Source: an uncultured Chthonomonadaceae bacterium (GTDB lineage Bacteria > Armatimonadota > Chthonomonadetes > Chthonomonadales > Chthonomonadaceae). From it: DNA of 64,000 bases. Under the pieces are notes generated by a model. The model was not told the origin of the DNA and made no database searches. It saw nothing but the letters and a program-made list of their open reading frames with translations. Shown here piece after piece: positions 25,887 through 27,689 of the stretch (the stretch's first letter is position 1; each line of letters begins with the position of its first letter). The stretch spans positions 64,001 to 128,000 of the forward strand of contig CAWFQB010000011.1 of NCBI GenBank assembly GCA_963817895.1, written 5' to 3'. The translations under genes were made by a program, and so were the position numbers.

Positions 25887-25915
25887 TTGTTAAGGGCGCA
25901 AGACTGTGTTATACT
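25887..25915 (+). promoter_or_regulatory. sigma70-type promoter of the amber-tRNA operon
   Basis: TTGTTA-N17-TATACT with extended TG. Confidence 0.65.
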
Positions 25916-25982: not shown

Positions 25983-26063
25983 ATGTATTAGGGCATCATT
26001 CGCATAATCAGGATCAGGCAAGCGGCGGCTTTTTGTCATTGGGCAAAAAGGCGGCGCTTTTTT
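25983..26063 (+). promoter_or_regulatory. Leader 1: ATG TAT TAG then GIIRIIRIRQ on read-through, running into a terminator-like hairpin (attenuator)
   Basis: Purine-rich GAAGAGAG upstream; TAG at 25989-25991; Ile/Arg codon run. Confidence 0.55.
26020..26063 (+). terminator. Imperfect intrinsic terminator upstream of first operon gene
   Basis: GCGGCGGCTTTTTG / CAAAAAGGCGGCGC stem (two G-G mismatches) followed by a T run. Confidence 0.55.
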
Positions 26064-26112
26064 GCGTTTTTTAGCCCCAACATTCTATATATCAACGGAA
26101 AAAGAGAAGACA

Positions 26113-26451
26113 ATGAGCAAACAGAAATCATCGGGTGAGCCGGTGGTCACCGGCAAAGCGGCCTATATCGCGCGGCTGCGGGCGGGCGAAACCGTCAGTT
26201 TCCGCGAGGGCGGCAACAGCATGACGCCCCGCATTAAATCGCGGCAGAAGTGTACATACAAGCCTGTGATGGCGGCTGAAGACGTGAAGGTAGGCGACGC
26301 CGTATTCTGCAAAGTGGGCGGCAACTACTTCACGCACCTGATTACCGCCCTGCGCGGCGACCAGTACCAGATCAGCAACAATCACGGCCACGTCAACGGC
26401 TGGATTACGCTCAACAGCATCTACGGCAAAGTAGTTGCGATTGAGGATTAG
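26113..26451 (+). CDS. S24/S26-like peptidase domain protein (soluble, Ser-His type)
   Basis: GNSMTP, VGDAVFCKV, FTHLI, NGW.....IYGKV. Confidence 0.72.
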   Translation: MSKQKSSGEPVVTGKAAYIARLRAGETVSFREGGNSMTPRIKSRQKCTYKPVMAAEDVKVGDAVFCKVGGNYFTHLITALRGDQYQISNNHGHVNGWITLNSIYGKVVAIED

Positions 26452-26527
26452 GAGGGTGTTCGGTGTTCGGTATTGGGAAGGGGTGGAACAAAGTAAAATC
26501 GTGTGCTATCAGTAAGTTTGAGATTAC

Positions 26528-26599
26528 GCCCGTGTCGCCATCTGGTGAAGGCAGCCGCCTCTAAAGCGGCCAAGATGGGTTCGATCCCCATCACGGGCA
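26528..26599 (+). tRNA. tRNA with CUA anticodon (amber suppressor; amino-acid identity unclear; CCA not encoded)
   Basis: Acceptor GCCCGTG/CACGGGC + A73; D arm GCC/GGC with GG; anticodon arm GCCGC-CTCTAAA-GCGGC; 4-nt variable loop; T arm ATGGG-TTCGATC-CCCAT. Confidence 0.9.
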
Positions 26600-26640
26600 T
26601 AGTGACGTATCCGAACACCGAACACCGAACACCAAACATC

Positions 26641-26751
26641 GAAAGGAGTTGTCGCCATGTTGTAGCCGCGCTCGCCGCCGTTTGCCTGAAAAGACAGAGA
26701 ACGATGCAAGAAATCTTTGCAGAAAACCTTCTACTTTTTACTTTTCAGGAG
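26641..26751 (+). promoter_or_regulatory. Leader 2: SD AAAGGAG, uORF 26657-26689 M-L-amber-P-R-S-P-P-F-A-stop, stem occluding the next SD
   Basis: CCTGAAAAG (26685-26693) pairs with CTTTTCAGG (26741-26749), overlapping AGGAG. Confidence 0.7.
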
Positions 26752-26762
26752 AACGAACACAA

Positions 26763-27155
26763 ATGAAGACATTGAACAGAACCATGACCGCGCGGTTTTT
26801 CCGCAGCGCGGAAGATTATGACCGTTTGATTGCGCTCTGGAGCGGCGGGATGCGGGACAGGGCAACGCGCCGCCAACTGACTGCCGCGCACCATCTGCTG
26901 TACCTGATTCTGCGTGGCCGCAACTGGCACTCGGCCTTTACACCGGTCACAAACGCCTGTAAACTGGAAAATGGGGGAGTATACAATTGGGGCGCGCGTC
27001 GCGCCGTCCATGCGCTCCATTATGGCAATGCAGAGGATTTGCTGGCTCCGTTTCGGGATATGCTTGCTCCTTCTGCGTTGGTTCTGGCGCGCGAACTGGT
27101 TCCGGCAGACAGTTGGAACGAGGCATTGCAAGGAGGCGAACCCTACCATGCCTGA
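26763..27155 (+). CDS. Hypothetical protein coupled to the Pth2-like gene
   Basis: SD AGGAG; HHLLYLILRGR motif; overlaps next start. Confidence 0.7.
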   Translation: MKTLNRTMTARFFRSAEDYDRLIALWSGGMRDRATRRQLTAAHHLLYLILRGRNWHSAFTPVTNACKLENGGVYNWGARRAVHALHYGNAEDLLAPFRDMLAPSALVLARELVPADSWNEALQGGEPYHA

Positions 27156-27507
27156 ACTGCCGAACGCGCAGCCGAGCGGGCATGTGTATGTGTTCGTCCG
27201 CAGGGATTTGCCGATTGCCGACCAGATGGTACAGGCGGCGCATGTTTGTCTGGAAGCGGGCCAAAGGTTCTGCGTCCCCTGCCATTGCCCGCTTGTGTTG
27301 CTTCAGGTGGCGGATGAACCGGCCTTGCATCGCGCCTTGCAGCATTGCCGCCGATACGACATTGCGACGCACACGTTTACAGAACCGGACGCGACGGAGG
27401 AGTTTCCGCAAACGCCGATGGGCTTGACCGCCGCCTGTACGCCGCCCTTAAATACGGCGCAGCGCAGGCGTATGCGTCCTTTCACGTTATGGCAGCCTCC
27501 GTCGTAA
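27148..27507 (+). CDS. Peptidyl-tRNA hydrolase 2-like protein (phage-type)
   Basis: YVFVRRDL....QMVQAAH, LVLLQV.DE..L, F.EPD, GLTA.C..P, terminal LW; SD AGGAGG. Confidence 0.8.
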   Translation: MPELPNAQPSGHVYVFVRRDLPIADQMVQAAHVCLEAGQRFCVPCHCPLVLLQVADEPALHRALQHCRRYDIATHTFTEPDATEEFPQTPMGLTAACTPPLNTAQRRRMRPFTLWQPPS

Positions 27508-27689
27508 TTGCCATTCGCGTGTATTCGCGTGTATTCGCGGCTAAGTTCATTCCCCTAAACCCCTGTTGAAATTTCAACAGGGGTTTGGCTTGTCAATGGC
27601 GAAATAACCCCACAGGATGAAAACAGACTGCCTCTTTTCCTAAAAGCTGGAGAAGGGGTGGGGTTGAGGGCTATTCAAAGGAGAAAACA

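Follow-up and report, generated by a model that had tools for sequence, protein, structure and literature searches.

Autoregulation of prfB, which encodes RF2, depends on an internal stop codon and a frameshift, so that RF2 is synthesized only if the early stop codon fails to end translation. The locus described here, in a genome in which the programmed prfB frameshift site is itself visible, appears to follow the same principle, with the difference that in-frame amber read-through takes the place of the +1 frameshift, the product has a Pth2 fold and a cognate suppressor tRNA is encoded alongside. Pth2 is a peptidyl-tRNA hydrolase of archaea and eukaryotes. Peptidyl-tRNA inside the 70S ribosome is out of reach for free Pth2 unless it drops off or a helper intervenes. 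The protein of this locus and its homologues share the fold (TM ~0.7) and the R-x-D and Q-x-x-H motifs of Pth2, and differ from it in the absence of Gly-Lys, in E-P-D for D-A-G and, for many of the homologues, in an early in-frame amber codon and a C-terminal RGPP. The anticodon CUA is the feature in common with tRNA-Pyl of the pylTSBCD system. Pyl-type tRNAs have a 6-bp anticodon stem and neither GG nor TTC, whereas the tRNA considered here folds as a canonical cloverleaf with no adjoining pyl genes, and its ARAGORN label of Pyl reflects nothing but the anticodon.

Arrest leaders of the RAPP type (ApdA, ApdP, SecM and CruR; PMC12992588, PMC10951233) place an RxPP motif beside a helix that hides a start site, as does the leader of this locus. 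In the accessible portions of these papers, RAPP and RGPP cause arrest and RDPP and RSPP do so partly (PMC12992588), and stalling at RxPP is conditional on the residues that precede it (PMC10951233); neither “stop codon” nor “readthrough” appears in the accessible text of the former. Unlike these leaders, those of the cassette described here have their motif behind a stop codon, run to about 8-13 codons as far as the motif and contain no signal or membrane segment, so their input would be read-through rather than pulling force.

Suppressor tRNAs with the anticodon CUA occur in jumbo phages that use the standard code, such as XacN1 and RsoM2USA, and in TAG-recoded phages. Like the tRNA of this locus, they are canonical cloverleaves that are presumably charged by a host synthetase, and XacN1 and RsoM2USA also carry the Pth2-like gene, in an amber-gated form. 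According to the available part of one study, 90 of the 162 UAG suppressors from phages showed activity in E. coli extract, where 28 of 29 phage tRNAs with the anticodon CUA incorporated a residue assigned as Gln, to which Lys is nearly isobaric (PMC12636597). As far as the accessible text of the phage papers goes, these tRNAs are presented without a target or partner; for XacN1, two CUA suppressors and no C-terminal read-through targets were reported (PMC5852040). In contrast, the present locus belongs to a bacterium in which TAG still serves as a stop codon and RF1 is retained, and its tRNA is tied to gated genes. Pth2 has been noted in jumbo phages in the available part of another report (PMC7824862). 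A more distant parallel is the tRNA-like terminator proposed for LUCA, a model of the past that, in its accessible portion, places a glutamine-like group on a tRNA (PMC6514570). There, as in one reading of our locus, a tRNA recognizes the stop codon and another moiety releases the chain, which here would putatively be the Pth2-fold protein.

Here, we analyze a 64-kb stretch of DNA from an uncultured Chthonomonadaceae bacterium (the window). An earlier note had recognized in it a genuine amber tRNA with neither a Pyl-type structure nor a Gln-type acceptor stem, and these points stand. The note's suggestion that the tRNA competes uncharged with RF1 is not favored, and it overlooked the surroundings: judging from the sequence, the tRNA belongs to a cassette with amber gates that spans roughly 25983-27507. 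We consider it very likely that the tRNA, a leader, a gene that we call ORF130 and a Pth2-fold gene constitute a conserved cassette and that its gating is real. Searches of the open-access literature, within its accessible text, returned no published account that links a suppressor tRNA to an amber-gated Pth2-like gene (supplements could list some of the genes or tRNAs) and none in which an arrest motif follows a stop codon. The read-through-gated cassette is apparently undescribed so far.

Results

A canonical tRNA with an amber anticodon

The single tRNA of the window lies at 26528-26599 (+), with the anticodon CUA at 26561-26563 (CTA at tRNA position 34 in ARAGORN). The complete cloverleaf described in the earlier note is agreed on by ARAGORN, Rfam and folding. 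The tRNA matches Rfam RF00005 over the whole model at positions 1-71 with 53.8 bits (gathering score 29; E 8.7e-9), and the strand folds into a cloverleaf at -34 kcal/mol (z -3.48), with one equally good shuffle in 200. G1-C72, A73, the D-loop GG, TTC, the 5-bp anticodon stem and the short, 4-nt variable loop are all present as the note had stated. CCA is not encoded, and neither G3-U70 nor a long arm is found; U14 stands in place of the usual A14, and C15/G48 in place of the usual 15-48 pair. The 5-bp stem, GG and TTC bear out the note's rejection of tRNA-Pyl, as does the best match to PylRS in this genome (81% complete), which reaches 27.9 bits against a cut-off of 178.

A DNA-level search with the tRNA returned its own copy only (one of 41 genomes, none of the 40 relatives), and a pattern specific to its body had no matches elsewhere. 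Since the body is not conserved, we sought homologues through ORF130. Among the 76 distinct CUA tRNAs of the cassette loci obtained in this way, 69 have the loop CUCUAAA, 75 keep G1-C72 and 74 have a purine at position 73 (A in 66, G in eight); U8 and A14 are frequently missing. The anticodon is therefore not an assembly error, because syntenic tRNAs with different bodies share the same loop, and the homologues carry CUA rather than a sense anticodon, so the amber assignment made in the note stands. Some copies may be inactive, given the many bodies without U8 and A14 and the short anticodon loop at locus L003. At that locus (1973-2041, -) and at L045, the tRNA is one base short in the anticodon arm, and ARAGORN reads a two-base anticodon at this place; it is either a decayed copy or an alternative fold. 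Phage-type loci L016 (2756-2844), L017 (2434-2601) and L093 have at least two CUA tRNAs each, one of which has a long extra arm and is mis-called Phe(AAA) by ARAGORN. In the window, the tRNA is bracketed by short inverted repeats of heptamers (26456-26475 and 26611-26640). Similar repeats occur upstream of prfB, and contigs of other sequencing runs join across them, so they are likely an interspersed genome repeat.

The amino acid carried by the tRNA is harder to predict. Both well-formed tRNA-Gln genes of the host have U1-A72 and G73, which agrees with the note's view of the acceptor stem as non-Gln; its description of the isotype as ambiguous is likewise upheld, as body-similarity hits are scattered and the best identity is 0.69, to tRNA-Leu(CAA). 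Both host tRNA-Lys genes match the CUA tRNA in G1-C72, A73, U35 and a short variable arm, but G1-C72 with A73 is also present in 15 other short-arm tRNAs of the host. Lys is our best guess, a tentative one based on these sequence features. Another amino acid, or none, seems doubtful; Tyr or Leu would be somewhat unlikely; and Gln would be unlikely overall, with a higher chance in hosts that have GlnRS. GlnRS was not found in this genome or in genome G001, and it exceeded the cut-off in two of the five genomes tested (four cassette hosts and G001). A Gln-inserting amber suppressor is disfavored for this host in view of G1-C72, A73 and the GlnRS result. The residue at the gate position of ungated Pth2-like genes is not conserved and therefore gives no hint as to which amino acid is inserted. 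As a single observation, the window's Pth2-like gene has CAG ten codons before its conserved Arg.

The host terminates at TAG

In this genome, 619 of 2419 long ORFs terminate with TAG, and RF1 (prfA) exceeds the cut-off here and in 29 of 31 cassette hosts. We therefore rejected a TAG-recoded (code 15) organism, in which TAG would no longer be in use as a stop and RF1 would be lost. Besides the CUA tRNA, the genome has a normal tRNA set. Three features of this set are an array of 16 tRNAs that includes a short-arm tRNA-Leu(CAG) and tRNA-Ile(TAT) (contig C4, 227906-230044), three tRNAs with a common unusual D loop (C3, 373423-373740) and a tRNA-Sec (C1, 245013-245110).

Loss of RF1 was also considered as the reason for the tRNA and discarded. 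Both prfA (C4, 318310-319405) and prfB (C3, 682860-683970) have one unexpected frameshift, in the latter case beyond the programmed one, although rpoB is intact. These frameshifts are probably assembly indels because their rate fits that of the assembly as a whole: 13 of 52 orthologues identified from a genome of the same genus are frame-shifted, with 17 breaks in 21,007 amino acids. Matches to a Shine-Dalgarno sequence with Met-X-stop before a long frame show no excess of TAG in this genome (28 raw matches, compared to 33 for TAA and 37 for TGA).

The cassette is conserved across phyla and rare

An ORF130 motif pattern picked out 35 loci in genomes, 5 in viruses and 96 in metagenomes, mostly from Chloroflexota. 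In total, 154 loci were collected, 149 of them with an ORF130 match; removal of 16 duplicates and of 29 loci with less than 250 nt upstream left 104. In 91 of the 104, the 1.8 kb before ORF130 contain a tRNA whose anticodon reads a stop codon, usually 95-220 nt away (35 of 36 genome, 50 of 61 metagenome and 6 of 7 viral loci). Downstream, a Pth2-like gene follows in 73 of the 79 loci with room for it. Close kin aside, no further neighbor recurs around the cassette. The loci are related by descent, so these counts overstate their independence.

Within the phylum of our bacterium, ORF130 is found in four and the Pth2-like gene in three of 401 genomes; in the phylum of genome G411, the Pth2-like gene is found in one of 401, namely G411 itself. 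The nearest named relatives are Armatimonadota: cassette loci L045, L046 and L051 belong to Chthonomonadaceae, Armatimonas and Abditibacteriaceae and are duplicates of loci in genomes from the order or phylum of our bacterium. Loci L055 and L084 carry relatives of ORF130 with no tRNA, leader or Pth2-like gene detected nearby. Just after the cassette, window positions 27503-27550 have very high contig depth and loose ends in all four sequencing runs; this segment is a multicopy palindromic repeat. Among the contigs listed from these runs, those of relatives span the cassette piecewise.

A leader with an amber codon before an arrest motif

A short leader with its own Shine-Dalgarno sequence precedes ORF130 at 26657-26689 (+). 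It encodes Met-Leu-amber (amber codon at 26663-26665) and, on read-through, continues as P-R-S-P-P-F-A to a TGA. The RSPP codons (26669-26680, +) form an RxPP arrest motif. Directly 3' of them is an anti-Shine-Dalgarno arm (26680-26693, +), 13 of whose 14 positions pair with the Shine-Dalgarno arm of ORF130 (26741-26754, +). The latter is predicted to be sequestered unless a ribosome covers the anti-Shine-Dalgarno arm: its predicted unpaired probability is 0.35 in the free RNA, 0.50 with a ribosome at the amber codon and 0.76 with a ribosome at RSPP. No other site in the genome combines a Shine-Dalgarno sequence, Met-X(1-3)-stop and RxPP.

The same design recurs in the homologous loci. A strict Met-X-stop-RxPP leader is present in 75 of 104. 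In these 75, the stop codon and the anticodon agree as CUA with TAG in 70 and as UCA with TGA in three (which represent two lineages); two have TAG with no tRNA detected, and there is no mismatch. The other 29 loci comprise 19 with a variant leader that has a start and a TAG, several of these with two TAGs before RGPP, and 10 with no Met-X-TAG at all. Among the 86 leaders called, RAPP (34), RDPP (14), RSPP (9) and RGPP (4) recur, a spectrum that equals that of known arrest sequences in the accessible parts of PMC12992588 and PMC10951233. In 72 of the 75 strict loci, the sequence that pairs best with the start region of ORF130 lies at the stall site, directly 3' of the motif. Cognate helices are more stable than swapped pairs (-16.9 vs -12.2 kcal/mol), and both arms show changes. 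The predicted unpaired probability of the start site has a median of 0.27 in the 75 loci with a ribosome at the amber codon and 0.50 with one at the stall site. Access increases by more than 0.1 in 57 loci and decreases in none, part of which follows from blocking any sequence closer to the start. The leader is thus predicted by folding to work as RAPP-type leaders do, with RxPP upstream of a regulated gene and a start-hiding helix that is opened by the stalled ribosome, and amber read-through is predicted to switch on ORF130 and the Pth2-like protein.

In the window, a further gate may act on transcription. A candidate sigma-70-like promoter (25887-25915, +), one of two such sites in the region compared to 1.4 expected by chance and singled out by its position, is followed by a mini-ORF that encodes Met-Tyr-amber (25983-25991, +). 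Read-through of this amber codon leads the ribosome into an intrinsic-terminator-like hairpin with a U tract (26018-26073, +). Constrained folding of the window and of loci L003 and L004 predicts an intact hairpin with a ribosome at the amber codon and a weakened one with a ribosome past codon 9-11. This arrangement is shared by the three loci and was not seen among the Chloroflexota loci displayed. In these three Armatimonadota-type loci, read-through would switch on transcription, and the cassette is therefore predicted to be inducible by failing termination. Between the hairpin and the tRNA is an accessory 112-aa ORF (26113-26451, +), with no Pfam match and with homologues in three of the 104 loci; its product may resemble S24/S26 peptidase-like proteins. 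At locus L115, its homologue lies between the tRNA and the leader and has an in-frame TAG at codon 9.

ORF130 and a Pth2-like protein

ORF130 (26763-27155, +) encodes an all-helical protein of 130 aa (model pLDDT 94.4) with 528 representative homologues at E<=0.001. It belongs to no Pfam family. No Foldseek match was found at E<=0.001, and the best Z among 48,161 chains was 3.1, which neither names nor excludes a fold. A methyltransferase lead (Atlas scores 0.85-0.87, up to 135 shared features) was dropped because the model is all-helical. ORF130 has no match in the phage collection in which the Pth2-like gene has 37 records, and a single-sequence search of viral contigs yielded no related loci.

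The Pth2-fold gene (27148-27507, +) overlaps the stop codon of ORF130. Its product has a Foldseek probability of 1.0 and TM values of 0.63-0.76 to human Bit1, AF2095, MJ0051 and others. It matches a Pth2 profile at E 0.0013 and stays below the gathering score of Pfam PF01981 (13.5 vs 23 bits). The Gly-Lys of solved Pth2 enzymes is replaced by a two-residue gap and Asp, Ala or Glu. Since this Lys, which we take to be the catalytic residue, is missing together with the Gly, hydrolase activity is not assured, and the protein would at best act like Pth2.

Most copies of the gene are themselves gated. An in-frame TAG lies 7-14 codons before a conserved Arg in 63 of 79 ORF130 loci, in 45 of them at exactly 11; the other 16, which include the window, have no such codon. 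A C-terminal RxPP motif (RGPP or RAPP), absent from the window copy, is carried by 32 of 72 complete Pth2-like proteins (loci L019-L118), which would therefore stall their own ribosome. In a few other Pth2-like genes, an RxPP motif lies just behind the TAA stop.

Eleven of the 37 phage records were analyzed. Nine of these phages (ME3, CBB, XacN1, Arash, RsoM2USA, LR756511, BF, CM1 and pT24), several of which are kin, have an early Met-X(1-2)-TAG in frame with the Pth2-like gene. All nine have a tRNA with a CUA loop, as judged in eight by annotation, ARAGORN or an overlapping Rfam tRNA and in CBB by pattern only. The Pth2-like genes of RaK2 and Hallingskeid, which are possibly kin to each other, have no early stop, and these phages have no match resembling a CUA tRNA. 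The gene has been mis-annotated or missed because of its early amber codon: the records of Arash, CBB, RsoM2USA and BF (loci L159, L157, L160 and L163) either truncate it or leave it unannotated. In Arash, the CUA tRNA (L159, 3301-3375) is annotated as Phe, which is an error. In XacN1, the amber-gated gene (ORF364), a read-through target at the 5' end, exists besides a separately annotated Pth (ORF295). In XacN1 (L158, 1464-2303) and CM1 (L165), the gated domain is fused behind an HD-motif domain, which may resemble the HD domain of CCA-adding enzymes.

Discussion

We propose, with a probability of roughly 0.45 for the mechanism as stated, that the locus is a self-limiting amber-decoding cassette. 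A host synthetase, most likely LysRS, would charge the tRNA, which would then read UAG in competition with RF1, as the gates suggest. A ribosome that passes the leader amber codon would stall at RxPP, cover the anti-Shine-Dalgarno arm and free the start of ORF130, and translation of the Pth2-like gene would follow by coupling; in most loci, a second amber codon in the first codons of this gene would also have to be read through, and in the three Armatimonadota-type loci, including the window, read-through would turn on transcription as well. When a gene is expressed only after stop read-through and this control persists across phyla and phages, the simplest view is that its product reduces read-through, as is the case for prfB, and the Pth2 fold makes the acyl end of the tRNA the likely target. 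In the most speculative step, the Pth2-fold protein, aided by ORF130 in the branch to which the window belongs, would attack the ester at the acceptor end of the CUA tRNA and release a peptide or amino acid, after which read-through would fall. The net effect would be to clear UAG of ribosomes in times of RF1 shortage and to cap harmful read-through.

One interpretation of this activity is a split release factor: the tRNA would take over the nascent chain at UAG (or at UGA, for the UCA variants), and the Pth2-fold protein and ORF130 would free the chain. This would amount to RF1-independent termination with one extra C-terminal residue, switched on when protein release factors fail. We regard it as a real possibility, on balance doubtful. 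A comparably doubtful, and if anything less probable, interpretation is that the suppressor tRNA is a stable RNA poison, causing read-through at about a quarter of all stops, and that the amber-gated proteins are an antidote that destroys, binds or uncharges it. Such a unit could persist by addiction or as an abortive defense against phages or, in a variant, the capped tRNA could serve phages as a decoy for tRNA-cutting defenses; on this reading, in any of its forms, termination would gain nothing. The cassette is small and self-contained, is rare and patchy in the phyla surveyed, lacks conserved neighbors and, by eye, has a promoter-like sequence directly before the tRNA in many loci, and the lost Pth2 lysine could mean binding or a different substrate. 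However, transcription of the tRNA is itself predicted to need read-through in three loci, which is disfavored for an addiction module, and lytic jumbo phages keep the tRNA and the Pth2-like gene as a pair across long distances. Between backup termination and antidote, the transcription gate leans toward the former and the patchy spread and missing lysine toward the latter.

Alternatively, the loop might set the level of amber suppression for particular amber-interrupted genes, with the Pth2-like protein merely recycling peptidyl-tRNA(CUA) that drops off at the mini-ORFs. The accessory gene with an in-frame TAG at L115 would fit this, as would the presence of suppressor tRNAs in standard-code phages (accessible text of PMC5852040 and PMC8504454) and their activity in E. 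coli extract. We nevertheless consider it unlikely: amber-interrupted reading frames show no excess in this genome, the XacN1 authors reported no C-terminal targets, and the only recurrent amber-gated genes that we found are the cassette's own. Still less probable is the proposal, made in the earlier note, that the tRNA sits uncharged in the A site at UAG, where it would rival RF1 or signal stress while the gates sense near-cognate leak only. The absence of a clear isotype origin, the degenerate tertiary core and the failure to find GlnRS or PylRS in this genome speak for it. Against it, G1-C72 and the purine at position 73 are conserved as synthetase determinants would be, and with leak as their only input, the double gates of leader and in-frame TAG, the former sometimes with a pair of TAGs, would yield hardly any product; the leader and the Pth2-like gene can be translated only if UAG receives a residue and elongation continues. 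An isolated mutant tRNA or an assembly error with no link to its neighbors, to which the frequent indels and the lack of a DNA-level match in relatives might point, is contradicted by synteny, by stop/anticodon covariation and by co-occurrence in phages, and we give it practically no weight.

Suppressor tRNAs of bacteria and standard-code phages have been listed without a purpose, and the self-limiting cassette proposed here would supply a partner and a control logic for them. All of its parts are small, and it might find use in genetic-code expansion as a means of capping or tuning amber suppression. If the proteins disarm the tRNA, the cassette would be a new kind of RNA toxin-antidote loop. 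If they release peptides, it would be a new route of termination, and a split release factor would be a living example of tRNA-mediated termination in bacteria and jumbo phages. On either reading, the combination of a stop codon, an arrest motif and a hidden start site would constitute a natural sensor of read-through.
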